Source: Gnetum montanum
Lineage: Eukaryota > Plantae > Gnetophyta
Length of the DNA: 64,000 nt
NCBI GenBank assembly: GCA_015680685.1
Contig: MNCI01003051.1
Span: 319,984 to 383,983, forward strand
Direction: 5' to 3'
Both the position numbers and the translations under genes were made by a program. Below are positions 7,833 through 42,807 of this stretch, one piece after another. The stretch's first letter is position 1. Each line of letters starts with the position of its first letter. The notes beneath the pieces were generated by a model that saw only the letters and a list, made by a program, of their open reading frames with translations, made no database searches and was not told the DNA's origin.

Positions 7833-10087
7833 ATGGCACCAATACCTAAGAGACCATAGGAAGGAGGTCCATCCCAACAAAGGGATAAGCGAACTAGAGG
7901 AGGAAGGGACCAACAACAACCCCAAGAGAAAGCAATAGAGACACATGCAACAGGACCTCTTTGGGAGGAGCCTAAAGTGGAATCTATCTAAGAGATTCCC
8001 ATAGCTGAGACTACGCAATCACAACGAGACAAGGTACCTAGCCCCAAACCAAACTTGGAAGTCACTTTGACTTATTCTTGCTTGAGGAAAATCAACACTA
8101 AGGAGGTTAAAAGTTCGATTCTTCAAGAACTTAACTTTGGACCTTTCTTAGACTTGGCACTAGAAGAGGTCAGAACACAATTGCAAACATCTCTCATGTG
8201 GTCTATCTTCACTTCCAGTGGGGAATGGTACATGGGGAAAACATACCTCTTTTGGAACAGCAGGTAGGCTGATGCCATGATGAAAATAAAGAACATCAAT
8301 GTGTGGTGGTGACCCATCAGTCTATCGATCAACTATGAGTCATTTGAATGAGGTAATCAGAACCATTAATTGGCTAGAGGAGGTTGTGTCATTTTTTTCT
8401 GTCCAAAGGATGTATGTGCCCACAAGGTCAAATCCTAGTGCCCGAGAAGTGACAGTGTCCCTCTCAAGACAACAACAATTCCTAAAAATTTCTAGGAATG
8501 TCACTACTTTCTTGGTGCACTTGGAGAAGGGTAAGGGAGCAATTGTCTTAGTGATGCAACACCAAGGGTAGGAGACAACAACAAAGGTGGTGGCTAACTG
8601 TGTGGTAGAAGCTTTGAATGCTCATGTGGCCTTTCTGCTAGATATCGCTGCACTCAGGGATGTGTAGATGTTTGTAGGAGCAACTAGTGGAAGGTTTAGC
8701 ATAGCCCAAAACGAGTAGGTGTTGGACCAACTAGTCAAAACTGGGGCAATTGCTTCTAGAGGTCTTTGACCTCCTAGATAACATCATTACCACCTAGTTG
8801 ACACTATTGGAAGACAGGCGCAAGCTTATCATTGTCAACGCCTAACTTGAGGTAGCTATATCTAATAATTAATGATTGGTTGCTGAGGTTGCAGAGTTGA
8901 AAGCTTGACTAGCTAATCTTGCCATTTTCAGCTAGACCATAACAAGAGATGAAGCTTTCCTATAGCTTCAAAACAAATTGAGAGAGGCTGATAATGCAAA
9001 GAAGACAATAGTCTTTAACACATCCCTCTTAGAGGCCACTGCCTACAACATCAAGAGGGACTTGTCAAAATTCCGCAAGGAGAATGTGATTTTGACCAAA
9101 GAAAAGTATCACCTGCGGGATGTCAAAACCCAAAAGGACCAAATGGTAGAATCTGTGTGACAGTAGCAAGAGGAGCTTGCCAAGGTAACCATGGATTTGA
9201 GGAGGTTGACTATTGAGAATCATAATCTCTCGATGGAGGAGGTTTATGTTCTTCACCAAAAAATAATAATTGAGATAGTTGCCTAGAAAAACAAGGCCCT
9301 AAAATTTGAATGGATGAAAAATCATTATAGGGACTAGGTTGGACTCCTCAAGGAGATGAATGAAAAAGAAACTCAATTGGCAAAGGCAAAAGTGAATGAG
9401 GCCCTCCAGTAACTCCAACAAAGAGGTGACATGTGGCAACCCATCTTTAATGGACTCAACACGTATAACAAAGCTGAAATTTGCCTCAAGGAGTTGCAGA
9501 TCAAGGAGATGATGGAGTACATGGAGCTAGCCAACCTATAATATGCAAACTTGATAGTGCTAATTGTCGAAAGGCCAAGGTTAGAACTCGAGAAGCAAGT
9601 GGACAACTCTTACCTCTTGTATGAGGCAAAGTTCAAGCACCATAAAGAAACGAAACAAAAGTTACAAATAGTTGATGCCAAGCTTAAAGTTCTCCGCACG
9701 TGCTTCACAAATCAACAATCGGTTATAGTGAACATGGCCAAGAGAATGAATAACTAGCAAGAGCTACAAAACATTATTAGAGTATTTGACATCAAACATA
9801 AACAATTTGCTACCTAGTTTATGAACGTTAAGGAGCTATTCTTAGTCATGCCTTGTCTATGAGATGTCCTCGTACTAGCTCACATCGACGATGCTGCGTG
9901 TACTGTGTATGATCCCTAGACTAAGGAGGAGAAGATGAAAGCGTTGCTAGATGCTTTTCATCTTTCACCAGAAGTCACAGTTGCAACAGGATAGCTGCAA
10001 CCACCTCAGTCTCAATCACCACATGCACTAGAGATAGGGGAAGGTCTTTTAGCACCTTAGGAGCCTCCACCTCTTGGGATCATTTGA
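7833..10087 (+). pseudogene. Degenerate accessory ORF of element B (basic N-terminus, ELNFGPF block, long coiled coil)
   Basis: ELNFGPFLDLALEEVRTQLQTSLMW and MELANL*YANLIVLIVERPRLELEKQV align by eye with element C's ELNFGPFTEFAPELVKDQLKGSPLW and MELANLQYAILVMLIVGCLRTKLEK*V. Confidence 0.8.
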
Positions 10088-11138: not shown

Positions 11139-11254
11139 TCTATGATATAATTAATTTATAGGGGATGCATTTTTTTCAATTTCAAACACATTGTTTGGTT
11201 ATGAGCTTATATTTTATTTTATTTTCCAACTTTCACCTACTCAAAACTTTGTTA

Positions 11255-13690
11255 TGCCCAAACAAATTATCAGTGTTCTGAAATCAAGGTTGCTGTGTTT
11301 AGCCTGGCCAATGATAAAGCCCCTGGTTTTGATGGCATCCCCATTGAGTTTTTTAAGAATCATTGGGATATTGTGGGTTCAGACCTCTCTTATGTTTTTG
11401 CAGAAACCATAAATCAACAGTCTCTCGGTCCTGAGTTAAATAGAGGTGTCATCCGTCTTATTCCTAAAACAGGTGATCCTTCATTGATTGGTAACTGGCG
11501 TCCTATCACTCTCCTTAACTCTGTTTACAAGATTTTGGCTAAATGTCTTGCTAATAGACTGAAGCTAATTATCCCTCAGATCATTACCCCAATGCAAACA
11601 GGCTTTGTTAAGGGTAGGTATATTCTTGATAATGTTGTTGCGGCTTGGGAAGGTATGCAATGGGCCGAGGACTCCAATCAAAACATTGCTTTTCTTAAGC
11701 TTGATTATGCTAAAGCGTATGACAAAATTGAGTGGAAATTTGTTATTGCTTGCCTTCATAAATATGGTTTTCACATTAATTTTATTAAAATGGTGGAGAC
11801 TCTTTTTGTCGACGCCAATGCCCTTATGGCTACTAGCGCTGGCTTAACTAATTGCTTCAAGCTTAAGCGCTCTGTTAGGCAAGGTTGTCCTCTTGCTCCT
11901 TACCTCTTCATTCTTGCTGCAGACTTTTTGTGTCATGTTATTCATAAGGATAAGGAACAAAATTTGCTTCAAGGTATTTTCATTGATCATAATGTTCCTT
12001 CCTTATTGAATATGCATTTTGCTGATGACTCATTCTTTATGATAAAAAATGATGCTCTTATTGCTGATCATCTTTTTTATCACTTTGATCAATATTGTAG
12101 ACTCTCTGGCTCTCAGATTAATTGGTTCAAATCTTCTATCTTTTGCAACAAAGAGGTTCAGGCCTAGGCGTTGTCTAAGTCTTGGCAATTTTTAGAAAAG
12201 GATCAAGTTTTTAAGCTTCTTGGCATTCCCTTTTCTTTTGGCGGATCATCCAAAACATTATGGGATGTCACTGTGAAGAAACTTGAACAAAAGCTTATTA
12301 AGTGGAAGGAAAAGAAGCTATCTATGGCTAGTAAATTTATTGTCTGCAAACATATTCTCCAAGCTACCCATGTGTATTTCTCTTCTTGTTGGGCTCCTAG
12401 CATCTCTGCTTATCGTTGCATTAATCAACTAGTCAAACACTTTCTTTGGAACAGTAGCCATACTAAGAAAGGATTTTGTCGGGTTGCTTGGAACGTTTGT
12501 ACTTCTCATAAAGAGGACGACGATTTGGGCCTCATTAATTGCTACAAACAGGGCATTGTGTTATGTGCCAAATGGATGGCCAAATGCTTATCTGGCTCTG
12601 AACCTTGGAAGCTTCTTTTCCTTAAACGCATACAGCTTGGGAAGCCCAAAGGTAGTAATTATTGGAATAATACTCATTTCCTTAACTGGATTCTTTTTCC
12701 CACTGGTATTACCATTTCTGGTTCTGTTGTCATCAAACACATTTGGAAGGCATGGTGTTATATCAGTCAGTTTTGGAACTTTAACACTATCACTATTTCT
12801 TCCTCTACACTTGATAAGCTTTCTCCTTGGTGGATTCCCATTCACAATGAACCTTGGGCCATTAAGCGTCCTCGTCTATGTAGCACTTGGGATAAGCTTG
12901 GCATCTCCTCCCTCTCCTCTCTTCGCATTCATAATCGTTGGATTACTTGGACTGAATGTCACCTTATTTACGGTATTAATGCTGCTCAAAAGTCTACCTT
13001 TTGTACGATTTTGGATAGCTTGAACAAAAGTGTTGTTATTCAAGACTCCCTTGGTGGTTTTTTAGATCTTTCTTGGATTTCTGGTCATCAAGTTTTTCCC
13101 TATCATTCTAAGATTGTTTACTCTCTTATTAATTCCACTACTAATATTTGGCCTAGATTCAACCATCTTTGGCAAGTTAATCTTAATGTGCAGGTTTGGA
13201 AGCAACGTATTCAGACTATTTGGACTACTCCTACTTCTTCAAAGATTCAACATTTTCTGTGGTATCTGATTCACCAAGGTCTTCCTGTGGGTGTTCGGCG
13301 CTCTCATCTGGGGGTTCCTGACCCGCGATGTCCTATTTGTCACAGGGAAGATGCTTTTACTCATTGTTTTTTTTCTTGTCCCCTTGCTCATAGCTCTTGG
13401 ATTTGGTGTGGCAGGTTTCTACAGGGTTTTCGACCAAGCTTGGATGAGGTTCTTTTTAGTGACACTCCGCATCTTCAAGGCTCTTTGATTTATATCTGGT
13501 GTCGCCTTCGTCCCCTTATTCTCCATGCTATCTGAAAATTTCGTTGTAATGTGGTTTTTCAACGTGATTCTCCTACTAATATTCTCTCCTTGTCTATTCA
13601 AGGAGACATTGTTCAACAGCTAATGCTACAGTTGAGCTCTTGAACTTTTTCTCTCCTGTTTTTCCTAATTTCTTGTAGTTTCTCCTCTTT
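11255..13690 (+). mobile_element. 5'-truncated L1-clade LINE: ORF2 RT plus C-terminal CCHC zinc finger
   Basis: KAPGFDG, NWRPITLLN, LKLDYAKAYD, RQGCPLAPYLF, HFADD, CPIC..H..C; single frame with only two stops (TAG 12165, TGA 13533), both at probable TGG codons; 3' boundary approximate. Confidence 0.95.
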
Positions 13691-17048: not shown

Positions 17049-17689
17049 GTTTTAAACCTCATTTAAATTTTCTACATTTTTAGTGTAAATCTATTTTAAA
17101 AATTTATTTAGATATATAATATTTGATGCCGATTACTGTTAGCTTTTCGCTTTGTACATACTAAATGTTAGGAAGTATAGAATCTGCTACTGAGTAGGAT
17201 TTCACTTTATAATCATTTCTTTCCAAACATAATAAATTATAAATTGCTTTCAAAACGTAAGTACATAAAATTTGTCGAAATTTGTCTTCATTAAGTTCAC
17301 TCTTATAGTCTTCTTTAATCGGGAAGCTCTATTCTGCAAATAAAGTCTTTGTATGTTTAGTATGTTTAATGCATGGACATATCTTTTACATCTTTGTATG
17401 AAGGCTTTTAAAATTCTGTCTGGGGAGAGAGGAGAGTACTTTGGATGTGGGGGCTGGAAATTTCTTCGTTTGGATCCATCAATTTTGGTTAGTTAGTCAA
17501 ATAAGCCTGATTGCTGATCACGCTGTAATGCATTCCAAGCTAAGCAGCTTAAAAATACAGTTGAGCTTATGAACACTAATGCTTTTTGTTGGACAATCTG
17601 CAATTTCACAGCCACTAGACTATAGTTTTAGGACAATATTCTGTCAAAATTTATTGATGGATAAATTTCTGTACAAATGTTTTTGGGAA

Positions 17690-20600
17690 AAAAAATCCAA
17701 AAAGTGTCTATTAACAAATATAAACAAAGTTTACATAGGGAGCAAGCCCCAGACAAGCAAGCTCATGAACATGTTAAAATGGCCAGCACTGGCCTCAATC
17801 TGAGGCAAAGGCTGGAATCACAAAGTTCTATGGTGACCAAACAGCACCCCTCAGGTGAACAACGAAACCAAAACACAAGATTGACAAGGAACAAATGGCC
17901 CACGCAAAGCAGGCACAAAGGTAGCTCCACAACTACAGATGGGATGTCAATTATCAGGACACATGTTCAAAGGGAAACTGCAAAACTCACAAACATTGTT
18001 CACAGTTATGGCCATTACCAAAGCTCAAAGATGTGAGGATTAAACATATCAACAACCCATAGCGGCAATGGGACCGGTGTTTTGAATTGGAGGCATTCTT
18101 GAAAGTGCCTTGGTTTGGGAAGGACCCCCTGCTGATTGCAAGCAAACATCACCTTGACTAGTCTATTGTCCGGGGTGTGCTACCTTTAGTAAATTGCTAA
18201 ACCTGAGCACCCTTTTCCACTTGTGGCTAATGCAAGGATGGGGCTTAGACCACTTTGTTTCCTGGGTGTAGAGAACTTCCACTTTCAAAGCTTCACCCAG
18301 TCTGAGCATCTCGTTGATGTGTGTAAGGCCATTCAGGCCCTCTACGTACCATGATCTTAAGATCATGGATTAGATTTAGGTTTAACAAGGTTGGATGCCC
18401 ACCTGCAACAGGGCCATCCACAATGTCTTTCTCCATTTGTCTTTGCTGCTGTTCAGCTGTGGAAGGCCGACTCAGCATATTTCTAGATGGTGAAAGAATT
18501 CCTTTAGCCCCCATGCAGTTTGGGCTGGATTTTCCCAAGTCAGATCCAACCACACTGTTGTCTAATGGATTGTGCATCTGCTTCCTACCTTGGTGTTTAA
18601 CCTTGGTGTTTAGAGTTCATCTGAATTGGGCCTTTCTCCATTTTTGAAACCACTTCCTCCAATGCATACAGGCCTATGATCACCTTCGTTGTTGGGGTAT
18701 AACCTTGTTCCTTTTGCTCTTCTGCTTGTGATTTTGGAGGGATGCTTCTTTTGGGGGCTATGGCTCTTTTCAGATGTTGGTTGTCACTGTGGCTTACAAG
18801 GCCAGAGAGACTGACGGCTGAGACCTTATTCTAAGGTGGTTGCTCTGGGGGACACATGCCTGCCCCCAGCTATGCTTTTGTCTTAGCTTGGTTGGCGATT
18901 TGAGGGTTAGCACTGCCCAAACACAGCTCGTGTGTGTGCTCAATCATAGATCCAACAACACAACCAGGGATGGGCTGTGAATTGCTAGGACACATGGTCA
19001 AAGGGAAGCCTCAAAACCCACAAAAATTGTTCATGGTGATGCACTATTACTAAAGCTCAAAGATTTGAGGATTAAGCATATTAGCAACCCATAGCAGCTT
19101 TGGGACCTCTGTTCTAAGTCATAGGTATTCTTGAAGTGCTTAGGTTTCAGAAGGACCCCTTGTTGATCACAAGCGAGAAACATGTGGACCAGTCTATTAT
19201 TTGGGGTGTGCGGTCGTTAGCAAATTGCTAAACTTGAGCACCCCTGTCCATTCAGCACTACCACTTTGTTTCCTGGGTGCAGAGAGCTTCCACTTTCAAA
19301 GCTTTGGCTAGTTTGAGCATCTCATTCATGCATCCAGGGACATTTAGGCCCTCAACTTTTTATAATTTTAAGATCATGAATTGGGCCAAATTTTAACAAG
19401 GTTGGAGGCCTTGCTTGCAGTTGTCGGGTAGCTTGAATGCTATATGTTTTCTCCGTCTCTATTATTGTACATTTTGGAAGGCCGACCCACTTGATGTTTG
19501 GATGGGAAAAGAGTTCCTCCAGCCCCCCATGTAGTCCAGGCTTGCGTCTCCTAGGTTGGACCTAGCCTGCTATCATCCAACAAATTGTGCATCCGCACCC
19601 TGCCTTGGTCTTTAGAGTCCTTGTCCATCTGTGAGCTAGGCCTTTCTCCATTCTTGAATCTACTTTTTCCAGCACATGTGGGCCTATTATCACCTTAGTT
19701 GTTGAGGTAAACACTCATTCCTTCTGTTCTTTCACTTGTGATTTGGAGGGATGCTCATTTTGGGGTTTAGGGATCTTTTCGGACTGTTGGTTGCCACCCG
19801 GGCTTATACGGCTAGAGAGATTGATTGCCAAGCTCTCATTTTGAGGTGGTTGCTTTGGGGAATGCATGTTTGTCTCTTGCTGCACTTTTGTCTTAGCTTG
19901 GTTGATGTTGCTAGGGTTAGCATTGTCCTGATGTGGATCTGGCATGTGTTAGAGTGGTGTTTGCTTGCTGTTGTGAGGGTTCCTTCCCTTTCCTTTTTGT
20001 TCTGGGTATTGGCAGGGGTTTTGTCCCTTCTTTAAATAGAGATACCAGTGGCTGGGAAAGTTATTAAATTTGAAGGGTTGTTTGATTTTCCCTCGAGAGC
20101 TAGATTTCAAATTGGAGATCTACATCTAGCAGCATGTCAATATAGATTTGGGCATCAATGAGTTGGGACATGGTAGCTGTGCAGTTGTCTAAGGCGATTA
20201 GCTCCCCAAAGATCACATCAATTGGCATAAAGACTTCCTTGTCCCAGGGTTCAATTGGCAAGCCTAGTAGCCTAATCCACACTGAGACTAATCAGATATA
20301 TTTTCTTGTAGTTTGGTGACTGCTGGGTACTATTTGTGTTCATATTTCCAAGAAAAGAAGTTGATTTTCAAACAACCATGGCCCATGGACAGAACCTTAT
20401 GCATAACCTTCTCAGAATCAAACAAAAATAAGGTTCCGTTACCCTTCAAGGATAATTTTCAAGGACATTGTTTGTGTGCTCATTGAAAAATGTGTTTCAA
20501 GGTAGGCAACCTACCAGAAAATAGGTTGATGAGGGTGTGTTAGTATCTCTGTGCTTGCCATCTAACAATCCGGTCAAGGACTTGGATGCTAATTTCATCT

Positions 20601-20900
20601 GCAAACTTGGTTGTGAAAAAATCCTTCCCACCACTTTATATTGCTTCCCTTTTAACAGGGTGACCATTGGTTTTTGTGTATTGCTAGAGGAGCTGGAAAC
20701 CATGTTAGCAAAGGACCAATGAAGTGTGTTGGCGATCCAAGAGCCACCCATATTGAATTCATCCACTGTTGTGTTGCTAGGATTAGGGTTCTTCATTGTG
20801 GAATCAAAAAGATTTCCATTGGAACCTAACCTATGCCCTTGAGGATTTCCGCCATGGCTACACCTCTCACTATCCTACACTGAGAGGTGGTTCGATCTGC
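17690..20900 (-). mobile_element. Degenerate L1-type LINE derivative in TIC22 intron 4: ORF1 (DUF4283-like) plus a duplicated ORF1-tail/endonuclease N-terminus, no RT
   Basis: WIRLLGLPIEPW..FGELIALD (20100-20282); APE start MILRSWYVEGLN at 18366 with a second copy at about 19378; boundaries approximate. Confidence 0.7.
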
Positions 20901-21030
20901 CCAGCCGCTTGTTGTACCCAATGTTGTCATGTGGACCATGGAGACTCAATCTATGTAATCCACTTGATCCTCTAGAAGCTTTGCTCATTATATTTGTGTA
21001 CAATTTGCAAGACATGACTTGTAGTATTTT

Positions 21031-21628
21031 CCACTACCTAGCATCAATGTATCAATCAGATGGTGAAATTAATAAAGATATAATAAGTAGAATTGAGGCA
21101 AGATAGTCAAAATGGAGACAGGCTAGTGGTGTTCTATTTGATAAAAGAATTTGAATAAAATTAAATGGAAAATTTTCTAGGACAACAATTAAGCTTGTTA
21201 TCTTATATGGTGTTGAATGTTGGGCAGTACAAAAGAGGCACAAACAGTAAATTAGAGTGATAGAAATCCAAATGCTTAGATGAATGTTGAATGTTACCAA
21301 AAGAGATAAACTGTACAATACAGACATTAAGGCAAGACTTGGAGTGGTTTCTATTTTAGATAAGTTATAGGAATGTTGTCTTAGATGGTTTAGACATGTG
21401 CAAAGAAGATTAAATAACAGCCCTATAAGAAAAGGTTGGTACATCACTATTCCAAGAAAGTCACTGAAAAGAAGGTCAAAAAGATATGGGTAAAATTATT
21501 GAAGATGATCTTCATAAATTGCAAATAAATAAAGATCTAGTTCTTTATAGAGTTGAATGACAAAAAAGAACTCATGTAGCCAATCCTATTTTGTTGGGAT
21601 AAGGCTAGGATGATGATGATGATGATGA
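21031..21628 (+). mobile_element. 5'-truncated RTE-clade LINE
   Basis: KWRQASGVLFD, LYGVECWA, LRWFRHV; 3' end gggataaggc followed by (GAT)n; TSD ttgtagtatttt at 21019-21030 and 21630-21641. Confidence 0.9.
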
Positions 21629-22751: not shown

Positions 22752-23753
22752 GTATTTTGCATACGGCTGTATTTACATTATTAATGCTCTTGTACATTTA
22801 TTTCTTTTAATAAATTCTGAATTTAGAGATCTATAAAGTAACCATGGTCCAATGGCTTCGTAAGCTTGATTCATTGTGCAACAATTATGCTGTTTGGGAG
22901 GAATTTCTTAGGAAAAGATTTTGTACCGTGTAATTGGATAGAAAAAAGTAGTAACACAACTAAACAGTTTTAAAAGCTTCATAGCTTGTGTTTTTTTTTG
23001 GTCATGTACAATAATTATACAGTTCTGAAAGTTTCATTCATATTTTTTGGCTTGGTTTCATTAGCAGTTTCGTTGAATATGTGAATGGTGCCAAAATTAT
23101 GCCAATTTTTTAAATTTGCATTCTTTAAGAAAAATCCTTCAATAATGCAGTGTCATGCTAGTCTTTTGGTTATTTGGGGATCCATGTAGTATCTTAGAGA
23201 GATCTAGATAGCCTAATATATGTTTGGATTGGAAGAAGGCACGTATGTGCTAAAAGCATCAAATATACCATATATCAAATTCATCGAATTGCTAATATTC
23301 ATTGCACACTGACAAATTTATAGGATTTTACAGAAGATACTAGCATGCTAGTTATACTTGGGACAAATTTGATTGCTACTTGGATCAATGACAGGTCATG
23401 AAAATGGCAAGGTTAGTGTTAAAACATTGTTTTTTTTAAGAGGGAAGTGTTAGAACATTGTTGGGGTTGTAGGTTAACTATCCACTTGCAGTTTATTCTC
23501 TCGAACCATTATAATGCCTTAATGAATGGATGTGTGACACTTTTTTTTTTAGAAAAGGTCAGGCAAAATTATATTAAAAAAGATATGTACAAAGCGGGAC
23601 TTCCATCAAACAACAGAAGTCCATATGGGGGAACTCCTGCCCCCTCTCCAAAAATTCCCAAAACAGATTGTGTTCCCCCTAAACCAACCCACAACACTCA
23701 AAACAGTGCAAGATAGAAATTTCACAATAATGCAAAACAAAACAGACTGAACC

Positions 23754-24261
23754 CTACACACCAAAACCACCAAACAGGCGACGATGGGGCAAACATGTCC
23801 CCACTAGCTTGTTCTCCTTCCACCCATGACTCTATGCTACAGTCATATTGACAGCCGTAGACATGGACATCTTGCTTGTTCTTGGGCATGACTAGTACCT
23901 AATACTGCCTGGTGTTGTTTGGTGTCCACGAAAGCTGCAGCTTGCTGAAACTCCTTGGCAGCCTTGTCCTTACGTGCCTGCTCTATTGCCGTGCCCTTCC
24001 CATCTGCTCTACACACCAAAACCACCAAACAGGCGACGATGGGGCAAACATGTCCCCACTAGCTTGTTCTCCTTCCACCCATGACTCTATGCTACAGTCA
24101 TATTGACAGCCGTAGACATGGACATCTCGCTTGTTCTTGGGAATGACTAGTACCTAATACTGCCTGGTGTTGTTTGGTGTCCACGAAAGCTGCAGCTTGC
24201 TGAAACTCCTTGGCAGCCTTGTCCTTACGTGCCTGCTCTATTGTCGTGCCCTTCCCATCTG
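23754..24261. repeat. Near-identical tandem duplication, period 255 bp
   Basis: ctacacaccaaaaccaccaaacaggcgacg... starts at both 23754 and 24009. Confidence 0.9.
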
Positions 24262-25427
24262 GGTGTAGCTTTGCCGTAGTTTTCTGAATGTGTTTGCGGA
24301 GCACCCTCCAAGGCACATTACAGCAAATGTTCATAATTTTGTATGGACATTTGCCTGACCGTAGCCACATTCGAACCCCATTCTTGTGTGCACGATCCAT
24401 TTGCCATCAGAGCTCCTCCACTTCTTGTTGCTCTGCTCCCACTCCTCCTGCTCGGCCTTCTCCCACTCTGCATTATGTTGCTTAGCAAGTAGCAACTTGG
24501 TCCTCACCTACTCCCTTAGGGAATCTTCAAGAGTAGCACTCAGGGCCAACTCTTTTAGATCCCATTCATGTTGAAGTTCCTTTTCTCGTTCCAACCATTG
24601 CTGCTCCATTGCGCTCAATTGATGCACAAACTCTTGCTCCCGAGCTGCCCACTTAGCCTCCCAAACATATCGTTATGCCCTCTGAGCCTACTTTGCAGCC
24701 TCCTCCACTGCCTTGGTTGCCCATGCCGTCTCTGCCTCCATCTCAAGCATCGCCTTTTCGGCCTCAAGGCGCTTGATCTAAACCCTGGCCACCTCAAGCT
24801 CGCCCCAAATTTCCCACACCAACTCTGGCATCAACTTAGTTGACCTCCCCCTATGGCACAATCGGAACCATAGACCATCAAAGAGCAATAATTAAACCAT
24901 AGTGGTGTCCTCGATGCTGTAGTTGTAACGTTGCTAGAAAAAACCTAGGTAGGTTAACTCATTGACCAAATTTCAGACACACTTCAAAAAGGCGAAGTGG
25001 ACCCCTTGCAATTTTGAAACATTGCCAAACTGGACAAAGTAATAGTCCACCACATCTATTGCCTCCTGCCAGATCCATTGTAGCATTGGCTTCAGAATTT
25101 GTCCATTGGCAGTCTTGGGAATAACCCCAAGAAAGAAAACCTGTGCATCCTGGAAACCGTGGCCATGAGGAAGAATAATCTCACCTGAAGCTAGAACTCC
25201 CAAACAAGCAGCTAGTCCCTCCTTCATCAGCGAAATGTGGGTCCGCCTAAACGTCGTTGCGATTCCATGCCAATTGCGAAAAAGGCATCATCCACAAGAA
25301 TTGGGTCCCCCTTTAGCAATTGAAGCACATCCGCCCACTCCACCTCCTGTATCATAGTCCACAACTCAACATTTCTCTAAAATCCTACGCAATTAGGTTC
25401 AAACGTTAGGGTCTGACCCATCGCCAT
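24100..25427 (-). pseudogene. LINE 'ORF3': ATHILA-ORF/putative plant transposon protein-like domain plus coiled coil
   Basis: Joined across frameshifts: VEWADVLQLL..DPILVDDAFF/RNW..THISLMKEGLAACLGVLASG..KFGQ*VNLPRFFLATL..HHYGLIIAL, then an E/A/K/R-rich heptad region at 24480-24830; 3' end approximate. Confidence 0.6.
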
Positions 25428-25679
25428 TGTTGCCTCTTGCCACAGTTTACACCCTTGTAGCACAGCTACCATGGAGTAGGCAACTGTGCAGCCCTAAACA
25501 CCTACGAGTTCTGCACCTTTCAAACGGCTCAAAGTGCAGTTGTCCCCATAGAATCCCTGCTCAGAGTGTGCTCGTGGTGGATGGGAGAGAGCGCAAGCTA
25601 CCACCACACATCATTCAAGAAAGAGCATTGATAAGCAAAGTGCTGAATAGTCTCCGAAGCCGTTGTACATAACAAATTG

Positions 25680-28547
25680 GTGTTCGATATACTAAGGCCT
25701 CAAGCCTATAGCACAACCTGGACAATCAACACATCGTGATTTAGGAGCCAGAGGAAAACTTCAATTTTTTCAGGCAAACTACCTTCCCATAATGTGCACC
25801 ACCTCCACACCATTGAAAACTTCCATTTTATGATTTCCTGGGGTGATTTCCCCATCATACCACTAGCAATCATGGTGGTAACATGTGCACAAATAGTCTA
25901 CTAGATGATTGAATCCGCTGGTCTGCTTGCCATTGAGTGTATTTTTCTCTCATGATCTGAACCCATTGAATGACATGAGAATTCAGCTGTGTGAGATGGT
26001 TAACCAAATTTTGGTAGGCCATCATAATTACATCCTGGAACCTTTGTGTTCCCAAACCCCTAGTTGCATAGGGTCTTGCAGTGGTTTCCAATCTCACTAG
26101 ATGTAGTTTTGACCCTCCTTTTCCCCCAAACCATATGAAATGTCTAATAATTTGGTCCACTTTTTCCACCACCCTTGTGGGAGGCGTGACAACTGTTGCC
26201 ATGAATCTAGCCATGGCCAACAACATTGAATTTGCCAATAACATTTGCCCTCTTTGAGTTAAAAATTGTACCATCCAATGTTCTACCTTTCGCTGCAATT
26301 GTTGAATAAGTGACCCCCAAGTCTCTTTACAGTTCCAAGCAAACATAAGAAGCCCTAGGTACACCTCTTGATTAGTTCTTGATACCATCCCCAGACATTG
26401 CAGAATCTACCCTCTAACTAGACAGGTTGCATGTGATAGATGCACCATGCATTTGTCCCGGTTTACCTCCAACCCAATCTCCAAGGCCATACGATCTAGC
26501 CCTATTGATGGCTTGCGCCTATAGAATCAATGCCTACAAAAGGATCATCATATCATTTGTGTAGTGCTCCATTAGGCAATCAATTCCAGCCACATTAAGT
26601 CTCTGTACCCCTTTAGCTTTGCAATACCCTTGCAATGTATCCATGGCGAGAATAAACAAGTAAGGTGACAGTGGGTCACCCTGCCTCAACCCTTGTCCAG
26701 GGGAGGAAAACCTCCACATCTGACCCCCAATATCAAAAGAATATGCTCATGAGGCCTGAATTTGGATACACAATGCAAAGAACCTTGGATCAAAGCTTTT
26801 TTGCTCCATGATATTAGCTAAGGCATCCTAGCTAACCATGTCGTAAGCTTTTTTAATGTCCAGTTTGATGCACATACCTAGGTACCCCAAACACTAAATC
26901 AAATGCATCACCTCTTGAAGAAGAATCACTTGAACCTGGATGTACCTTCCCTTAACAAATCCTGTTTGATTATTCCCAACTAGCCTTGGCATCAAAGGAG
27001 TAAGACATTGCACCAACATCTTAGTAAAAATTTGAATCAGGGTATTACACACCTTGATAGGATGAAACTGTGATAGGTCAGAAGGTTCAGCCACCTTGGG
27101 TATAAGAACAATTTTAGAATAGTTGATTTTGTGTTGGACCTGCTGCCGTTGAAGCATCCGATTGAAAGCATCTAACAGATTCAGCCCTAACACATCAATG
27201 AATTCCTTGAAAAACTCCATCGGCCATCCATCTAGTCCCGGGGCCTAATTCGATCTCATAGAAGCTAATGCCTCCTCCAACTCCTGCCACGAAAAAGGCT
27301 CCAACAACAGTTTATTCTCTGTGTCTCCTAGCAAAGGCTCCATCGGCACAGAAACAAGTGTAGTTCTCCCATACGCCCAAATCCTAGCCCAGTATTGCTA
27401 AACGACTTGAGCTACTTCCTAAGGATATGTAACCACCTTCTTGTTGAGATTCAATCTCACCTCCTTTGTAGCCCTATTCACTTTGGCAGCAACAAAGAAA
27501 AACTTTGTGTTATGATCCTCCTCTTTGAGCCAAGTAGTTCTAGCATGTTGTTTCCAATAACTCTCTTCCTTGGCATTGAGCTCTTGAAGTTCCCTCAGAA
27601 TGATCTACTCCCCTTTGTCTAGCTCTTCACCCTGCTCATGACGAGCCTGTAAGGAAGCTAACCGTGCCAGCAGAGCTATTTGCCCATCTCAAAAGGAAAA
27701 CCTCTTCTTAGCCTTAATTGACTGAAGAGCTTGTTTAAGCCAATGAAGACCCATCTTCAAGAAGTCACGGGGGTCCCTAATTGGATTATAAGTTGCCAAA
27801 ATCCCCACCACCATCAGCCTAAGCCAAGGCTTTCCCAACCAAGAGTGCTCAAACCGAAATGGAGAGGCCAATGGCTAAATCGGTCTCCCCACGTGACAAC
27901 AGAGCAATTGGTGATCTGATGCCAATCTCTCTTTCCCCACCACCCGAATCTTAGATTCTAGCACAATGTGTGTATTGACCTAAACATGGTTGATCTAAGA
28001 CAACACCTGATCTTTTCATTTATGATGATTGCTCTTGGTATACTTGCATCCGGTGATCTCCACATCAACTAAATCATGCTCCTGTAAGAATTCCAAGGAT
28101 TGTCTACTACTTGGAGGTTCCATCATATCATTACCTATTTTTTCCCAGGTGTACAAGTGTTGATTGAAGTCTCCAATCACAAGCTAGTGTCTAGTGTCAA
28201 CCTGCATAACCAGCTGCCTCAACTCTTGCAATCATTCTTCCCATCTCTGGGTCCCATAGAAATTTGTAAGCCATATGTTAGCTGCCTCAAGTTGCACCAT
28301 AATACTCCATTGCAAGGAGTCAACCAGCCTAAACAGCCGCTTTGCTAGAATGGCCAGCCAGCTTGCTTTTCCTAAACTAGGCACTATCTGTGTCTGCCAC
28401 CCATTGCAGGAAATGGGCCTCCGAAATATGCACTTTTGTCTCTTGCAAGCAAACAATGTCACACTCCTCCCGGTGCACAATATCTCGAAGGGTGTTTTGT
28501 TTATAGGGGGTACCTTGCCCTGTGCAATTCCACGAGAGAATCTTCAT
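25680..28547 (-). pseudogene. LINE ORF2 (AP endonuclease, RT, degenerate zinc finger)
   Basis: MKILSWNC, PFRFEHSW, NQTGFVKGRYI, RQGDPLSPYLF, YLGL, IRHFIW. Confidence 0.9.
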
Positions 28548-31500
28548 GGCTTACTAGCCAAGCGTTTCCTAACACTTCCTTCAAGGTCAGCTACAATCCT
28601 AGGTCGATCTCAACCTGTGTAATCTTACTACGAGCCACTAGCGATAGCGGTTGTCCAATTCAATCCGGTTCTGGTGAGACAGGGAAACCCCCACTCCTTG
28701 CCCGTTGTGCTTCTAAGATATCAATTATTTTAGGAAATGGGGAACCTTGAACGACCCCAACCTAGTCACCTAGTGGTGGTAGTCCTGCCTCCATAGTCCT
28801 TTGAGAAGGGGTAGGAGCATCCTCCCCCACCCTTCCAACTAGAGGCATCAGCTATTGCCCACTAGACCCCAAATCCATAGATGCCCCCCTTGAACTCCCA
28901 AAAGCAAGGACAAGCTCTGGTCCCCCATCTCTAGCACCCAAAATAGGCTCTTGGGCCTTAGCCTGGGCATTGGACTCACCAGTGTTGTAGACACATCTTG
29001 TAACAACGTTGCCCCGACGTTGCCTGGCACCCCAAGGAATTCACAAAGATCAAATAGATCTGGGGCGAAAGACCTGGGGAATACGCCTCAAACAAGCAAA
29101 CATCTCACAAGTGCAAGCAGAAGAGAACCAAGCAAACAAGTACACACACAACCTTGTAGGCCACATTGGTGGAAGGGGAGACAATGCACCTACAAGGGAA
29201 AGTGCCTCACCCCCAGATCCCTCACGATCTGGTCCAAGATGTGGCATGGCACCGCACCAAAACTATCCAGTCTTGGTTGCCTACATATCTACGACCGCCG
29301 TAGAATCAGGGCCATGTAGTTCTCCACGGAGAAGAGGGAANNNNNNNNNNNNNNNNNNNNNNNNNNNNNNNNNNNNNNNNNNNNNNNNNNNNNNNNNNNN
29401 NNNNNNNNNNNNNNNNNNNNNNNNNNNNNNNNNNNNNNNNNNNNNNNNNNNNNNNNNNNNNNNNNNNNNNNNNNNNNNNNNNNNNNNNNNNNNNNNNNNN
29501 NNNNNNNNNNNNNNNNNNNNNNNNNNNNNNNNNNNNNNNNNNNNNNNNNNNNNNNNNNNNNNNNNNNNNNNNNNNNNNNNNNNNNNNNNNNNNNNNNNNN
29601 NNNNNNNNNNNNNNNNNNNNNNNNNNNNNNNNNNNNNNNNNNNNNNNNNNNNNNNNNNNNNNNNNNNNNNNNNNNNNNNNNNNNNNNNNNNNNNNNNNNN
29701 NNNNNNNNNNNNNNNNNNNNNNNNNNNNNNNNNNNNNNNNNNNNNNNNNNNNNNNNNNNNNNNNNNNNNNNNNNNNNNNNNNNNNNNNNNNNNNNNNNNN
29801 NNNNNNNNNNNNNNNNNNACACATCTCCTTGCTTTACCACTTTGCCCCTTCTCCTAGCCAGGGTTTGCTCAATCTGAGTCTTGTGAGATGGAACCTTTGG
29901 GGAGACCCTACAATCTGTCGTTGAGTGACTCTTTCCATAGATCAGACAACCACTAGACAAAGTCCCACTAGTCATTGGCTTATCTATTAGCAAATTCTCA
30001 TATTCAATCCGTATCTTTTGATCTCCCGAGGGCATAGCTAAAATCACCTCATTAACCTTGTTCTTGAGTCCCAGTGACCTCCACACACAAAAATGGGCAT
30101 AGCCCATCCGGTCCATAGATGCAATGTACTTGTCGAACTTGATGAATTCCCCAAAAAAACCCAGCCAATGTTTTTAGGAAATCCAACACCCAGAACTCCA
30201 GGGGGAGGTCCAAAGCCCTAATTCAAATGGACGCCTAAGCAAAGAGTTCAATGTCCCGATGGGCCTTGGGCCACTAGGGTGCAAGTGCCAATCCACAGGC
30301 CCCATAAAATCAAGGGCCCTTGAAAAGGGCCCTCTCTTTGTCTTTTTCTGACTAGAAAACAAACAAAAGCTTGGCATTTGCCAGATTGTCGGCCTGCACA
30401 TTCTCCAAACCCTAGCTCGTGCTAGCCCATTGTCGTATAAGATCCATTCGGGAGTGTGCGCCTTCAGAAACAAACTTGCCAATAAGGCTAAGTTCCAAGG
30501 TACACATATCCCCATCAGGTGGTTGGCCAATTTGCAACCGCATAGTCCCTCCCTCCTTGGAGTGCCAACCAGGGCCACCAGGCAACAATGCTTCCATGCC
30601 CATTGAACCGCCTAGGCCACTTTTTCCTTGAGCATTCATGAAAGAGTTGCCCTCTACTGTAGCCCCATCAGACCCCAGCCCACCACTCCCTCCACAGCTT
30701 GATGTCCAGCTGGCCTTGCTGTCCTCAAGGACCACTCCACTCTCGTCTGCGCTCCCCATGCCCCCTCCTATATTCCCTGTGCTCCTGCCCATAAGTGCAC
30801 CCTACTGCTTTCAAGAGTCGATGTATTGAATGTTAATGCAAAGCTTAATAAGTCTTTTCAATGTGTGACACTTTCTTTCATGACGATCTGAATTTTTTTG
30901 GTTTGGTAGGTTTTGTTTTTTCTTCCTTTTCTCTTGAACAAGTGAAAATATAATTTTACCAATACTAAAATGTTGGGAGTTCAACCAGAAGAGTTTTTCA
31001 GACTTTAGAGATCAACCACGTTGAAGTGGTTTATTACATACTTGTTTAATCTAACAAAAGCTATAAAAAATTAAAAATTTCACCCTCATAGTACGAGCTT
31101 ATTCTCAATCTCCATTTACAACTTCTTAATTTTATTGCTCTTTGTTGGACTGTGTAAATATGACAAAATCATAATAATTATTTTCCATAATTTTTAGTCA
31201 CTAGATACACCGACTTTCTGATTATAGCCACTGTTTCAACAACTTGATTCCTGGGTATTCTTGCTTTAAAATTGGTTAAAGATTACAGGGCGTTTTGGCA
31301 AGGGTTCACCAACATCAATATTTCTCTCTGGAAGTTTCCGGAGATTTTATCTTAACTATTTCTAGAATCTGCAGTACTTGATCTTTCCGGAATCCAGGAG
31401 CTCCCACTATTTGGTATCTCATACATCCAACTGCATAAGTATCTATTATCTTTACTTCTATGACTTGTAGAATTTGCTTCCAGGATCTTGTACTTATTTG

Positions 31501-36982: not shown

Positions 36983-37807
36983 TGATGAATTGCGGTTTGC
37001 TAGGCCTTGATATTGGGTACATGATATCGCGATATCGCAATTTAGATACGATATTGTTTATACGATATCATGATTCCTATGTCAGCTTATAAATATAACA
37101 TTCAAGCCCACAGGGAAGGAGGAATCGATAAGTCTTTAGGATCAAGTTTTTTTATCAGTTTTTAGTTAGTTTTCAGTTCTTTTTCTAAGTGCATGCTTAT
37201 AGTGTGATATTTGTAATTGTATGGAACCTTTGTTTGAGTGTGATGTACTTGGACACGTACACAATTGACAATAAAGATCGAGATTACTCCATCGTTGCAG
37301 CATTCACTTAGTTTCTAATTGTTTAATTGTTGATTATTATTTATTGTTTTCTTAGTTAATATTTCTTTATTGTCATTTACTATTTCTGTTGATAATGTGG
37401 AATGGGTAGATCTTAATCACGAGCATTAAAGTGTAACTACGTGGTAACCCAGTAGTGTATCCATTAGTGCTTCAAGTGATGTGTGCTTGGTAATCCTAGA
37501 AGTAGTACATGAAGTCCAAGATGCGTACAAATGATTAAAGACAGATGCTCATCGCACTTATCTTACTTCATATTGCTTATTAGCTTAATTAAGATTATTT
37601 CTCATTGTCTTTAGGAGTAGCATAGTGTTAGGAATCATATCATACACCTCACTTTGGAGTAAACCATACGTGACAAAGCAAATACTAGTCTAGGTGGGAA
37701 GACAACGAACTACAATCAATGTATCACTATCTAGGTGCTACAACTAATTCGTTTGCGGAGTTCGACTAGATCGCGTGTACATGCTCATATTCGTATAGTG
37801 TTCATCG
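36983..37807 (+). repeat. 5' LTR of element C
   Basis: TGATGA start; collinear with the 3' LTR, with a small deletion near the U5 end. Confidence 0.92.
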
Positions 37808-37808
37808 T

Positions 37809-37826
37809 TGGCGTTGTTGCCAAGGA
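37809..37826 (+). promoter_or_regulatory. Primer-binding site, Athila-type (TGGCGCCGTTGCCGGGGA-like)
   Basis: tggcgttgttgccaagga immediately after the LTR; differs from the consensus only by transitions. Confidence 0.75.
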
Positions 37827-38093
37827 CGGTGCTAGTTATCTAGATTAGTTATATCATACAAGATCGCTGTAACAAAGTATTAACAATATATTTTTTAGAA
37901 AAGACATTAATTTTAATTAAGTCACACACAACCCACAACAATGTCTCTCTCATAAAACAACGATAACACAACAACTAGTGAGGCCATTCATTGGAGAACC
38001 AACGAAATTTATGATGAAGAAGAAGTTTGAAGTACGCAATCTTATGCAAGAGTTTCATATGTTCATGGACACCCCAAAGATACTCAAGGACTC

Positions 38094-39350
38094 TTGTCAT
38101 CCATCTCAAGCACCTCTAGTGAGGATGGGACATCCCATAGAATGAGGGGGTCCGTAAGGCCTAGGACCTTCTCAATGGTTAGGAAGAATACATTAGGAGA
38201 TGATTGGGAGACTTACAAAAGTTATGACAAGTCTTCCAGTTCTCTCTCTTCCTTTGCTCTTTCAATGTCAGGTTGTGACATGGATGAGTATTTCTCAAGG
38301 GGTTGGTGTAGAAATAAAAATCGAACCCACAGGCAAAATCAGGAACGCCAACATGAACAAAGACAACATCATCCCAACTCACAAACTCACAACCTACTTA
38401 GTGATGATGAACTTTTGTTGGCCAATAAGAGCCTAATGCATGTAATAGAGGTTGTTCAAATATCCCACAGGCATCGTAAGGAAAGCTATCTACCCAGGCT
38501 TAATTTAAACAACTTTCCCAAGTTTTTAGGAGGCTATGATTTAGATATGCAACATCATTTACAAGCCTTCTACGACGCCTGTGCATGGAACAATATTGAT
38601 AATGGGTGACAAAGACTTAAGCTTTTTCCTATGACACTTGTTGGCCAAGCAAAAGTATGGTACAGGTCTTTCAAGCTGAAATCAATTGGCCATTGGCCGA
38701 CAATGGTAGAACTCTTTAATGAAAGATATCAAACCTGTGCAAGAGTGTCAACCTTGAGGAGACAAATCCAAGAGTGGAAACAAGGGCAACATGAACCCTT
38801 GGACGTGGCCTTAGAAAGATATTACTCACTGTTAAACAACTACCCAAGCCATGGGTTCTTTGAGGAAAGGCTAATGTATCACATCATGGATAGGCTCCAT
38901 AATGAAACAAGGGAGACCCTAGGGATGTATGGCCTAGGTCAATTGTATGAACTATGAACCCACAAATTATAAGAGCTTATTAAGAAGGTAGCAAAAGAAG
39001 AAGGAGAGATAGCCAAATGGGAGAATGTTGAAAGATCACAACAGTACCAAACTCTTAAAGTAACGAAGGTCCATAATCATGAGGAGGAGAAATCAACTCA
39101 CCGTTAGGAGGTGGAACCATCTCCATCTTTACCAATACTAAAATCACTAGATGAAATTGAGGCAAAGATTAATAAGATGATGAAATGGGTACATGAAAAA
39201 TGTAGAGAATATGCAAATATTATCGGAGGTAAAACTACACACGATCACTTTGACACCCAGAATAAATAGAGGATGCCAAACTAAGAAATAGGACAAAACA
39301 CCATTCGATAACCGGAAAGAAGGGCTAAAGGAAATAAGGATAGGGGCCCA
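38094..39350 (+). pseudogene. Athila-type gag, degenerate
   Basis: FPKFLG..HLQAF; LKLFPMTLVGQAKVWY..W..MVELF..LRRQIQEWKQGQHEPL..ALERY..LL..YPSHGF. Confidence 0.88.
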
Positions 39351-39822
39351 ACTACAAATCAAAAGTATCAATGCGATGTTTGCCTGTACAATCACCCCAA
39401 AGGCCAATACCTAATCTTGTCACATCTACATGAGCATTGGGGAAGAATGCTACATTCGGATTTTGTATAGAAGTACTGTGTTCAACCGTAGTGGCAAAAT
39501 CCTCAGTCGTGGGGGAGACCGTCGCCAAACTGGCCTCAACCTTCATATGCCTCGACATCAAGTGCTTATTATGTTCAACACCCTATTTCTCCAACTGGAT
39601 TAACATCCTTTGCTTCACCCAAATCATTTAAATTATTTATTGAAGTCACTTGATCAAATTGGGCCTGACATTAAAAATTTTAGGGGGATTTCCTTGAAAA
39701 TTTCTAACTCTGAAATCACACTAAGCAAGAATTCAAAATTCATTAAAGGCAATGAGTAAGGTATAAGATAATTAAATTTTGTTAAATGACCTTACTAACA
39801 ATTGATCCCACTGTGATTACAG

Positions 39823-42619
39823 ATGATCCCTAAACGAGGACAACATGGATGACCCTCTCAAGGTGCATCCAAATGTCCAAGGAAAGGCAGAGGTCAAAGA
39901 CCTTCCGTACAACATGCAGAAAAGAGGCATAATCATTTAGCATTCATCAAGAAACCCCTGTTACTGTATAATCCAGGCAAGTAGAAGGTGGAGAAGGGAG
40001 GGCACCTGAACAAGGACAATATTTCACGTTGTCCCTAGAATGCATTTAGGAAATTCGGGAAAGGTCCACATCAACTGCAGTGATCGTGGAACTTAATTTT
40101 GGACCTTTTACTGAATTTGCCCCTGAGTTGGTCAAAGATCAACTCAAAGGATCTCCACTATGGCCTGTCCTCTTGAAAAGGAGAATGGTATTTGGGAGAA
40201 ACTTATCAATTTTGGCATAATAAAGAGAAAGGCACCATCATTGACATTGGTGCGGTTTCAGTTGATTTCTCCATGAAGGCCATTGTGGAAGTTCTGAATC
40301 TTCTGAATACAGGGCCCAAAGTTGCTCATCTGTCCACCCACTCTGATGCTGATGCACGAAAAGTATGGCTAAAGAGGATGTATGACAAGGAGGACAAAAC
40401 ATATGGGGAACTCACCCTTGAAGAGAGAATCTATTTCAAAATTGGCATCTATCACATCTTCCCAACGAAGGGACTAAACATAATATCCACCTATGCGGCT
40501 AGAGGAAGCGCAATCTTGATGGGCAAGGTTGATGCCAACTTGCCCCATTTATATCTAACAGAAATATTGAGGCAGTTCAAAGAACACAAGACATGAAAGT
40601 TTGCATTGCCCTTCCCTTGTCTAATCAAGAAGCTATGTTGGCATGTTGGAATTCTGGGGTACACTAATGATGTCCTTAGAAAGGCTCAAAATGCTTCATA
40701 TGCCAAATTAGTAACGCCACTAGCATCAAGAAAAGATGTTGGTGAGACACCAAAGCTTGAATAGGAGTAGACAGTTGGGCCCACTACACCTCAAATAGTA
40801 GGGCCTAGCTAACTTCTGGACACAAGGCCCAGTCAACAATAAGAAGTAGTGCCTAGCACGTAGCCCACAGGATAGCAGGATCAATTGCCACCATTGTTGC
40901 AAGATTACCGAATGTCGATGAGCCATCTCAAGGCCATCGCAGAAATGGTCAGTTGGGGAAGTCGTGATGAAGCCAAACTTTTCAAGGTAATCGACGATGC
41001 TGTACAGCCCACGATCTCAATCGATCATGCACAGGATGAGGTTTCGATACAAATAGAAGGAGGGGAGCCACATTGGTCATAATAGATTTCTAAGAATGCT
41101 GCATCATTTTAAGTACAATTGGAAACTAGTGAAGGTGCCACAGTGGTGATCATACAACACCAGGATGCAGTTGGAGCAGCAGAAGTGGTTGTGGACCATA
41201 TCAAAGAGTCATTTAACGTATTTGTTGTGCCATTAGTAGATCTCACAAGAGCACGTGATGCTCAAGTTCTAGTTGATACCTTGATGACTCTTGCAGAACA
41301 TGAGGATGCTCTGGATTGTTTGCTGCAAATAGGATAAGTAATGACGTCCCTGTTTGACATCCCCCAAGTTGTCATAGCAGCACAATCAGACCTCATTTCT
41401 ATGAAGGGAAATTTGGTCATGGTTGAGGTTAGGGCCGAACATGTAGAAAATGAGTTGAGAAGACTCCAGGAGAAGTTTGTTGCCCTACAAGCTACATAGC
41501 AGGATCTATCCCAACTTATTCTAGCCGACCAGCTAGAATTATTTAGGATAGAGCAATTGAATAAATTATTAGAGGATAATAAAAGGGTAGCAATGGAAAA
41601 AGTGAAGGCGGATTGGGATGCTTCAAAAGCATAGGCTCAAACATATGCATATGCAAAAGCACTCAAAGCCTTACAGGAAGGAAATAAGCTCCTTGTTGCC
41701 AAAAATCTTTGGTTGATAACAATTGAAAAACAAAAGAATGTTCTCAAGGAAAATTTTTAGCAAATGCAACAACAACTAATAAGGGTCAACTAAGACATGA
41801 ATCGCTTAGCTAGAGAGAACAGGATCCTCTCAATGGAGGAGGTACGTGCCATTTGTTAGAAGATGACCATTAAAATAAGCACATGGAAAAATGATGTTAA
41901 GTGACATGAAAAATTGAAGGAGCATTTCTAGACTATGTGGGGATGTATAAGCAGATCATTGAAAAAGAAATCCATATGGCTAAGACCCACATCAATTCTT
42001 TTAGTGCTTAAAACACTGATTGGCAGGCCATATTGGACACTTACGCCTTCGCCCACCAAGCAAAATTAAAGAGTCGAGACTTGCAGATCTTGGATCTCAC
42101 TGAATACATGGAGTTGGCAAACCTGCAATATGCCATCTTGGTCATGTTAATAGTAGGATGCTTGAGGACCAAGTTGGAAAAGTAGGTAGCTACCACCTAC
42201 GCCAAATATGAAGCAGAATTTGCTAAACACAAAAAGACACTACAAAAATTGGAGGTAGTAAATTCTAAGTCAAAGGTGGTAAAAGCTAGCTACCAAAGTT
42301 AGAAAGATGTTATAGTAGATTTGGCTTGACGTCTCATAGATTATCAAGAATTAGAGACAAATCCAGAGCCTACAAGGGGGACTGATGACTATTTGTGGCT
42401 TGGTACATCAAAACCAATTAGATGTTTCCGCAACTACCATGTCCATGGAAGGTGTCGACTCCATCAAATATTGGAACATCAACATGGATGGCACATGATC
42501 CCTGAATAGAGAAAGAAAAGCTTTAGGCGCTCCTTCAGAGGTATTCATTTCCAAAGCCTGGAGCACAAGATAAGAGGAAGAAGCCCATGGAGGAGCCATT
42601 GCCACCAAGAACCACATGA
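39823..42619 (+). pseudogene. Accessory ORF of element C (about 930 codons, degenerate): basic N-terminus, ATHILA-ORF/Transposase_32-like domain, long coiled coil
   Basis: ctaac...gattacag|ATG; VDFSMKAIVEVLNLLNTG; GKVDANLPHLYLTEI..ALPFPCLIKKLC; heptad-rich 41400-42350. Confidence 0.8.
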
Positions 42620-42807
42620 GTTCCAACAATTTTGTGTTATATATTTTGTGTTGGTGTCCTGATTTTGTATTCTGTTAAGTCCCACACTATGGCATAAAGA
42701 AATCCATAGTTAGTCCATAATCCCATATCTATCCATTGTGTAATTAAATGAGCTTGTTCCTCATTTTGTTTGACTTAGGGATAGTTTTTTATTTAGTCAT
42801 GGGGGTA

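Follow-up and report, generated by a model that had tools for sequence, protein, structure and literature searches.

The analysis points, with a probability that we put at about 0.5, to a three-gene LINE family in which the ORF3 product combines an accessory domain with a long helix and a likely J-domain and would recruit the Hsp70 of the host to the element, most likely as a countermeasure to silencing. The copy studied is an L1-type LINE of Gnetum montanum, located on the minus strand at 23541-30860 of the window (the whole stretch of 64,000 nucleotides analysed, to which all coordinates refer). The LINEs described so far have one ORF or two, and what the Athila-type accessory domain does is a long-standing question. 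If the reading is true, finding the accessory domain as a third LINE gene would make it independent of LTR-type particles, not acting as an envelope, while the fusion to a J-domain would give a first concrete handle on its function through HPD-dependent stimulation of Hsp70. The element would then encode a co-chaperone in a group where host J-domain/Hsp70 complexes serve silencing.

An L1-type LINE in a host intron

A Tic22-like host gene, the exons of which matched PF04278 with E-values of 2e-14 and 2e-6, harbours the element in one of its introns. The LINE ends in a 10-nt poly(A) tail (23541-23550, minus strand) and is flanked by an 11-bp TSD, whose copies at the LINE 3′ end (23530-23540) and 5′ end (30861-30871) are the only two occurrences of this 11-mer in the window; the boundaries given in the original prediction are therefore upheld. 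Terminal repeats are absent, and a poly(A) tail combined with a TSD of variable length is what is expected of an L1-type element. The element had also been called full-length. Both ends are indeed present, but ORF1, broken up by an LTR insertion plus an N gap, is not intact, and the LINE at 23541-30860 is a dead copy of its family.

The broken ORF1 region (28500-30780, limits approximate, minus strand) contains a weak DUF4283-like match at about 30444-30277, with a Pfam E-value of 0.0088 (under the cut-off) and an E-value of 5e-5 against our own ORF1 profile. The later insertion into ORF1 is a very high-copy LTR sequence at 28999-29821 with a 5-bp TSD. Other copies of this LTR sequence run on into a primer-binding site, as seen at loose ends of contigs, and the N gap at 29341-29818 may hide a whole LTR element. 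ORF2 (25421-28547, minus strand) is likewise broken and encodes an APE endonuclease, a reverse transcriptase and a CCHC zinc finger (Exo_endo_phos_2, E 1.5e-6; RVT_1, E 3e-16; zf-RVT, E 3e-12), the finger lying at about 25813-25604. No RNase H was found in ORF2 after the finger, either with Pfam or with a profile of 31 RNase-H-bearing C-termini.

Among the best 120 of 631 listed relatives, the matches to ORF2 are reverse transcriptase proteins that are 28-38% identical, with the named ones coming from plants. In a quick tree of 62 rows restricted to L1 relatives, the reverse transcriptase forms a long branch and has no close relative among the 60 tested. Plant L1-clade LINEs share with this element a DUF4283-type ORF1, an endonuclease-reverse transcriptase-CCHC ORF2, a poly(A) tail and a variable TSD. 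They differ from it in that some add an RNase H to ORF2, of archaeal type as in Ta11 (according to passages of PMC5348765), whereas the present element lacks an RNase H, carries a third, separate ORF after ORF2 and has its reverse transcriptase on a long branch.

Reading frame of ORF3

ORF3 (24098-25427, minus strand; about 440 codons) stands directly behind ORF2 and is readable on the sense strand from 25427 to 24098 in five pieces, with 5 internal stops and 4 frameshifts in the present copy. Stops make up 6 of 438 codons in the chosen frames, compared to 44 of 866 in the other two. Because these frames had been picked by the analyst, openness was re-tested against shuffled sequences with a free choice of up to 4 shifts. 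Under these rules the stretch keeps 4 stops, while shuffles average 10.1 (0/200 as low) and the opposite strand has 8. The frameshifted sense-strand frame predicted behind ORF2, with the motifs quoted for it, is thus present and more open than shuffled sequence.

A stretch of about 2 kb had been placed between the zinc finger and the poly(A). The stretch exists, but 255 bp of it are a tandem duplication (23754-24261, 99% identical) that repeats the end of ORF3 and enlarges the 3′ UTR (23551-24097, minus strand). The duplication is skipped by a 1119-bp contig from sequencing run X1 that is 99% identical with 4 other letters, and it is probably an assembly artefact or an allele.

A nested LTR insertion was considered as the origin of ORF3 and is disfavoured: the 20 largest of the 32 repeat families include no pair that flanks it, and the sole purine run of at least 11 in the search round ORF3 falls within the ORF. 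Reads of RNA run X19 on this region are few, come from both strands, are mostly less than 95% alike and lie at a host-intron position, and hence are uninformative on expression.

The ORF2/ORF3 junction

ORF3 begins within a few codons of the last conserved motif of ORF2, in a different frame and with no A-tract between the two. The junction (25419-25431, minus strand) holds an ATG at 25427 and a second ATG at 25421. The first of these lies in the window's only AACAATGGC, which we take to be the plant start consensus and of which 0.76 would be expected by chance in the whole window. In other copies no indel with a share of at least 30% is listed at 25400-25440. Behind 25403, a cell of five contigs is collinear with the junction, and in it the ORF2-frame stop, read by eye, overlaps the ATG at 25421; the overlap is known from this one majority cell, with an agreement of 0.79.

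Judging from these five contigs, ORF3 is probably coupled to ORF2 by stop-start overlap. Translation of ORF3 from the element's single mRNA would then proceed by termination-reinitiation at the overlapping stop-start, as in SART1. There, according to passages of PMC3894237, ORF1 and ORF2 are coupled by an overlapping stop-start pentamer; the same pentamer between two LINE ORFs was read here in the five contigs, although it would couple ORF2 to ORF3 rather than ORF1 to ORF2.

A start so close to the last ORF2 motif could also mean that the frame extends ORF2 at its C-terminus, at the place of the Ta11-type RNase H, and looks separate since this copy is broken. Plant L1s do add a domain there (passages of PMC5348765), and insect LINEs add helicases to ORF2 (passages of PMC4686597). 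The difference in frame, the lack of a listed indel at the junction and the ORF2-frame stop overlapping the ATG in five contigs all make such an extension highly improbable. Moreover, the profile of C-termini with RNase H picks up the zinc finger at E 1e-16, while ORF3 gives no match to it. An RNase H identity for ORF3 was rejected on the same comparison.

ORF3 in other copies of the family

The evidence from other copies consists of contigs from public sequencing runs matched at 80% likeness, the summed depth of which is no copy number. In run X1 this depth is 36-388 over ORF3 and 54-749 over ORF2, compared to 11.5 in the flank, and the pattern is repeated in runs X3 and X8. Matches to 23500-25950 were obtained for 374 contigs, 262 of them less than 90% alike and 288 fitting only in part. 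At the poly(A) tail, 17 run X1 contigs leave the LINE, passing from the end (before 23541) into unlike DNA; nine of these share only the last ~36 bases and may belong to other families. No contig of run X15, from another organism (organism H), covers ORF3, and missing cover does not equal absence.

Among 15 of 58 joints listed, two link ORF3 to the end of ORF2 in other contigs, 31 or more letters lying on either side of the joint (25158 to 25489, side 37; 25454 to 25545, side 98), while two more (25185 to 25626 and 24391 to 25824, sides 28 and 30) are borderline. Furthermore, a 1679-bp copy with 80-81% identity keeps the order of the first domain followed by the helix/J junction. Many diverged copies therefore contain ORF3, and at least two copies besides this one have it linked to the end of ORF2, which bears out the proposal that it travels with this ORF2 in many copies, hundreds of diverged contigs being found.

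Several lesions of the present copy are missing elsewhere. The frameshift at 24977 is absent from 7 contigs and that at 24432 from one; the stop at 24675 is replaced by other letters in 79-86% of the depth; and a 13-contig cell at 24979, read by eye, keeps the VNLP motif and lacks the stop at 24961. For the frameshifts near 25283 and 24890, no indel with a share of at least 30% is listed in other copies. Since the 1679-bp copy shows no net change in length across the break near 25283, this break may be shared or misplaced. The first break of ORF3 (25279-25285) coincides with five consecutive U of the mRNA, with no indel there listed in other copies, and a −1 frameshift at 25279-25285 may be shared by copies.

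We consider it very probable that ORF3 is a maintained gene of the LINE family. It could instead be a passenger: a fragment of a host gene or LTR element that was acquired at the 3′ end on one occasion and has since been propagated, without being needed, by a subfamily. L1 elements are known to transduce 3′ sequence (PMC7264820). In X1, X3 and X8, one single-copy contig connects 23576 with 25516 and skips 1939 bases, the intervening letters being unread; it may be an ORF3-less copy, which would suit a passenger, or a copy with ORF3 less than 80% alike. Also in keeping with a passenger, the 440 codons of ORF3 can be read only with 4 frameshifts, whereas 623 codons of ORF2 are readable in a single frame, and synonymous changes account for 6 of the 24 best-supported differences, which is no excess (these are mostly the present copy's own mutations). 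Yet the ORF2 core contains 15 stops in its 623 codons, so that the stop density of ORF3 (1.4%) is not above that of ORF2 (2.4%), and copies only 80% alike keep ORF3 in order. In addition, the start of ORF3 abuts the stop of ORF2 with no remnant UTR or A-tract, and ORF3 is unlike element C and the other LTR elements of the window. Taken together, we regard a passenger as distinctly unlikely and favour a maintained gene.

The first domain of ORF3

The first part of ORF3 (24830-25427, minus strand) is suggested by fits to our own profile to be Transposase_32/Athila-accessory-like. The original prediction had compared it with the accessory ORF of element C (37000-43650). Element C has LTRs, gag and this ORF with no pol seen between them, and is likely a non-autonomous element retaining its accessory gene; a second broken ORF of this kind, ~30% identical to it in the helical part, lies at 7780-9900 on the plus strand. 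As claimed, the element C ORF carries the quoted motifs and is of the Transposase_32/Athila kind (Pfam E 2.7e-9, 37.6 bits against a cut-off of 45; Atlas 0.92).

For ORF3 itself, no piece or frame matched Pfam Transposase_32 (PF20167) or ATHILA ORF-1 (PF03078), the pieces being split by frameshifts, and HHalign as well as comparison with 12 single members was not significant, so that the Pfam and profile-profile comparisons proposed at the outset did not go in favour of the likeness. No relative was found among 475 candidates from 5.8 billion proteins or in 1.84 billion representatives, with queries that began after codon 46, omitted the J part and included ~30 out-of-frame residues. A search of the Atlas, at low recognition, gave no match either, and thus no intact ORF3 homologue could be examined. 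Direct comparison with element C was not significant, as 300-666 of 2000 shuffles reached the local alignment score, and by sequence comparison ORF3 is not similar to any other LTR element in the window. The best BLOSUM45 alignment with element C extends over 175 residues nearly free of gaps and keeps the motifs in register, and 300 of 2000 shuffles score as high.

A profile was then built from 11 PF20167 members, found on plant-like contigs in 4 of 15 distinct bacterial assemblies, with ORF3, element C and the split locus L045 excluded. In local HMMER searches element C scored 28-35 bits and ORF3 about −1 bit, a score reached by 52 of 2000 and 119 of 3000 shuffles (p 0.03-0.04). When aligned end to end, ORF3 fits with 1 inserted residue and is equalled by 5 of 1500 and 9 of 2000 shuffles; among controls, its score is matched by 20 of 1758 frames in the window and by 22 of 864 ORF2 windows. 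When the window was searched with tolerance for frameshifts, at three penalties, element C came first each time and ORF3 took ranks 3, 2 and 3 of 163-166 peaks; of 161-165 reversed decoys, 2, 0 and 1 scored as high. With other member sets ORF3 ranked 2, 3, 9 and 27 (the last two with narrow profiles), and with element C added it ranked 2. The own-profile p for ORF3 is about 0.003-0.04 depending on method, and its best values flatter ORF3 since the methods were tried one after another.

On this evidence, homology between the first domain of ORF3 and the LTR accessory domain is likely, but we stop short of assigning ORF3 to the family. Of the proposed accessory module common to LTR and non-LTR elements, what stands is a real third ORF in a LINE family, while homology to the LTR domain is suggested at p ~0.003-0.04. 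The fourth quoted motif is present as a pattern, but the family profile fits the next stretch, LLFDGLWFRLC, better than HYGLII. The description as env-like is dropped because a hydropathy scan (highest 19-residue value 1.35) found no membrane helix.

The additional ORFs of Athila/Tat Ty3 elements (PF20167/PF03078, for example sunflower Athila 14 aORF(+); PMC7264820 and passages of PMC11728184) likewise lie on the sense strand at the 3′ end and encode 440-490 residues. ORF3 has the same order and spacing of motifs over ~190 residues, then long helices, as in element C. It differs in sitting in a non-LTR element, and the similarity is at the edge of detection.

Searches with the domain of element C gave no homologue among 526 candidates, no locus in viral contigs and no solved relative by sequence. 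A metagenome scan yielded 3 short matches of 26-41 residues (L001-L003) that are probably due to chance, the Athila primer-site pattern occurred 0 times in viral contigs, and PF03078 had 0 matches in 5 genomes. Bacterial assemblies with short plant retrotransposon contigs matching PF20167 (L036-L047 in G001, G005, G006 and G013) probably reflect contamination.

The helical part and the end of ORF3

The original prediction had about 115 residues of coiled coil follow the first domain. Long helices are present, but their extent is about 135 residues: a single-sequence AlphaFold2 model of the middle of ORF3 has helices over residues 22-158, with a pLDDT of 94-98 over residues 41-150, and the long helical, coiled-coil-like part maps to 24420-24830 (minus strand). 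Nor does the frame end with this coiled coil, as had been supposed, since a further piece (24406-24098) is J-domain-like with an intact HPD.

The J-domain-like end, the part of ORF3 most telling for its function, occupies 24143-24370 (minus strand), with the HPD at 24257-24265. J-domains deliver targets to Hsp70 through HPD, a tripeptide of which the six-frame translation of the window has just two occurrences. The sole Pfam match of the last piece is DnaJ (PF00226), with E-values of 0.023 and 0.047 and 15.2 bits against a cut-off of 27.8; the alignment spans profile positions 2-50 of 63 with HPD in place. Since junk frames also give Pfam matches at E 0.02-0.09, this match counts solely as a test named beforehand, and it disappears when the whole ORF3 frame is scanned. 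E. coli DnaJ (1bqz) was the second of 2 PDB matches (E 1.3), and NCBIfam gave nothing for the piece. In a single-sequence model with a pLDDT of 55, HPD lies between two helices; fold searches with this low-confidence model found no Foldseek match and a best Z of 4.1 to unrelated helices. From these sequence features the last domain of ORF3 is probably a J-domain.

It is also conceivable that ORF3 is a real family gene whose likenesses to Transposase_32 and to a J-domain are both due to chance. In line with this, the DnaJ match of ORF3 and the Transposase_32 match of element C are both under curated cut-offs, several standard tests (the element C alignment, HHalign and single members) were not significant, and the fold searches with the low-confidence model found no J-domain. 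Both likenesses, however, had been predicted ahead of the tests and fall at the expected places, and the first domain fits its profile end to end. Chance in both cases is accordingly rated improbable, and we retain the reading of ORF3 as an accessory domain, a helix and a likely J-domain.

Proposed function of the ORF3 product

In the mechanism that we propose, the first domain would target the DNA or chromatin of the element in the nucleus, the long helix would space or oligomerise, and the HPD loop would trigger Hsp70 to remodel a silencing complex at the element. This sequence of steps, drawn by analogy, is put forward as somewhat short of an even chance. A nuclear, Hsp70-recruiting anti-silencing factor is favoured because the Athila aORF with PF20167 is predicted to be nuclear (passages of PMC11728184), because TE silencing in Arabidopsis involves the J-domain protein SILENZIO acting together with MBD5/6 and HSP70, and because proteins that counter silencing, VANC21 and perhaps PMD among them, are encoded by TEs (both from passages of PMC8616336).

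The main competing explanation is that ORF3 acts in cis on its own RNP, where Hsp70 would fold or activate ORF2p or ferry the particle with no role in silencing. Stop-start coupling, as inferred above, would place ORF3p beside ORF2p on one RNA. Activation of the hepadnavirus polymerase by Hsp40/Hsp70 provides a precedent. Chaperone and nuclear-import roles have likewise been proposed for additional ORFs of LTR elements (PMC7264820). Most L1s, however, work without such a gene, and PF00226 or PF20167 is carried by none of the 120 best-listed ORF2 relatives, a comparison that a separate ORF would escape. The nearest characterised accessory protein is, moreover, predicted to be nuclear (passages of PMC11728184). 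We consider an action in cis unlikely, and prefer recruitment of Hsp70 against silencing.

Somewhat less likely than the mechanism proposed above, the whole could represent an undescribed lineage of three-gene plant LINEs, in which an Athila/Tat domain crossed the divide between LTR and non-LTR elements, became fused to a J-domain, is expressed by stop-start coupling and turns Hsp70 against silencing. The window would then hold the full-length element that links ORF3 to ORF1 and ORF2.

Comparison with known systems

J-domain proteins of the DnaJ/Hsp40 class C, such as SILENZIO (passages of PMC8616336), share with the end of ORF3 a helix-HPD-helix arrangement, aligned to DnaJ positions 2-50. 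The J-domain-like part of ORF3 differs from them in being transposon-encoded, C-terminal and diverged (15 bits against 27.8), and is predicted from sequence. It also sets ORF3 apart from element C, the tail of which gives no such Pfam match.

Acquired accessory modules are kept by insect LINEs as well, with an SF1 helicase in ORF2 of TRAS and in ORF1 of Jockey, for which counter-silencing has been proposed (passages of PMC4686597 and PMC5563155; see also those of PMC6338049). While those helicases are fused to ORF1 or ORF2 and are of viral origin, here a separate third ORF is found in a plant. Extra ORFs are described for LTR elements in PMC7264820 and in passages of PMC9289625, the latter passages containing no mention of 'DnaJ'. 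In searches of open full-text articles we found no retroelement-encoded J-domain and no LINE with a comparable third ORF, the hits examined by passage being unrelated; this agrees with the original remark that a described LINE lineage with such an ORF3 was not known.

Other elements in the window

A nearly intact L1-type ORF2 lies at 11205-13640 on the plus strand (reverse transcriptase E 3e-29, zf-RVT E 4e-11); it ends soon after its finger with no third ORF in view, and provides an ordinary L1 for contrast. The Tic22-like host gene itself extends over 14315-35310 on the plus strand and has very long, transposon-filled introns. The intron that holds the three-ORF LINE also contains a second LINE-like element on the minus strand (17680-20990), with a DUF4283 ORF1 (E 3e-10), a 1-kb internal duplication, a likely TSD and an A-rich tail. 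No ORF2 was seen in its translation, and it is perhaps an ORF1-only non-autonomous LINE. A plus-strand fragment at 21080-21600 resembles what we assume to be the 3′ end of an RTE-type LINE.
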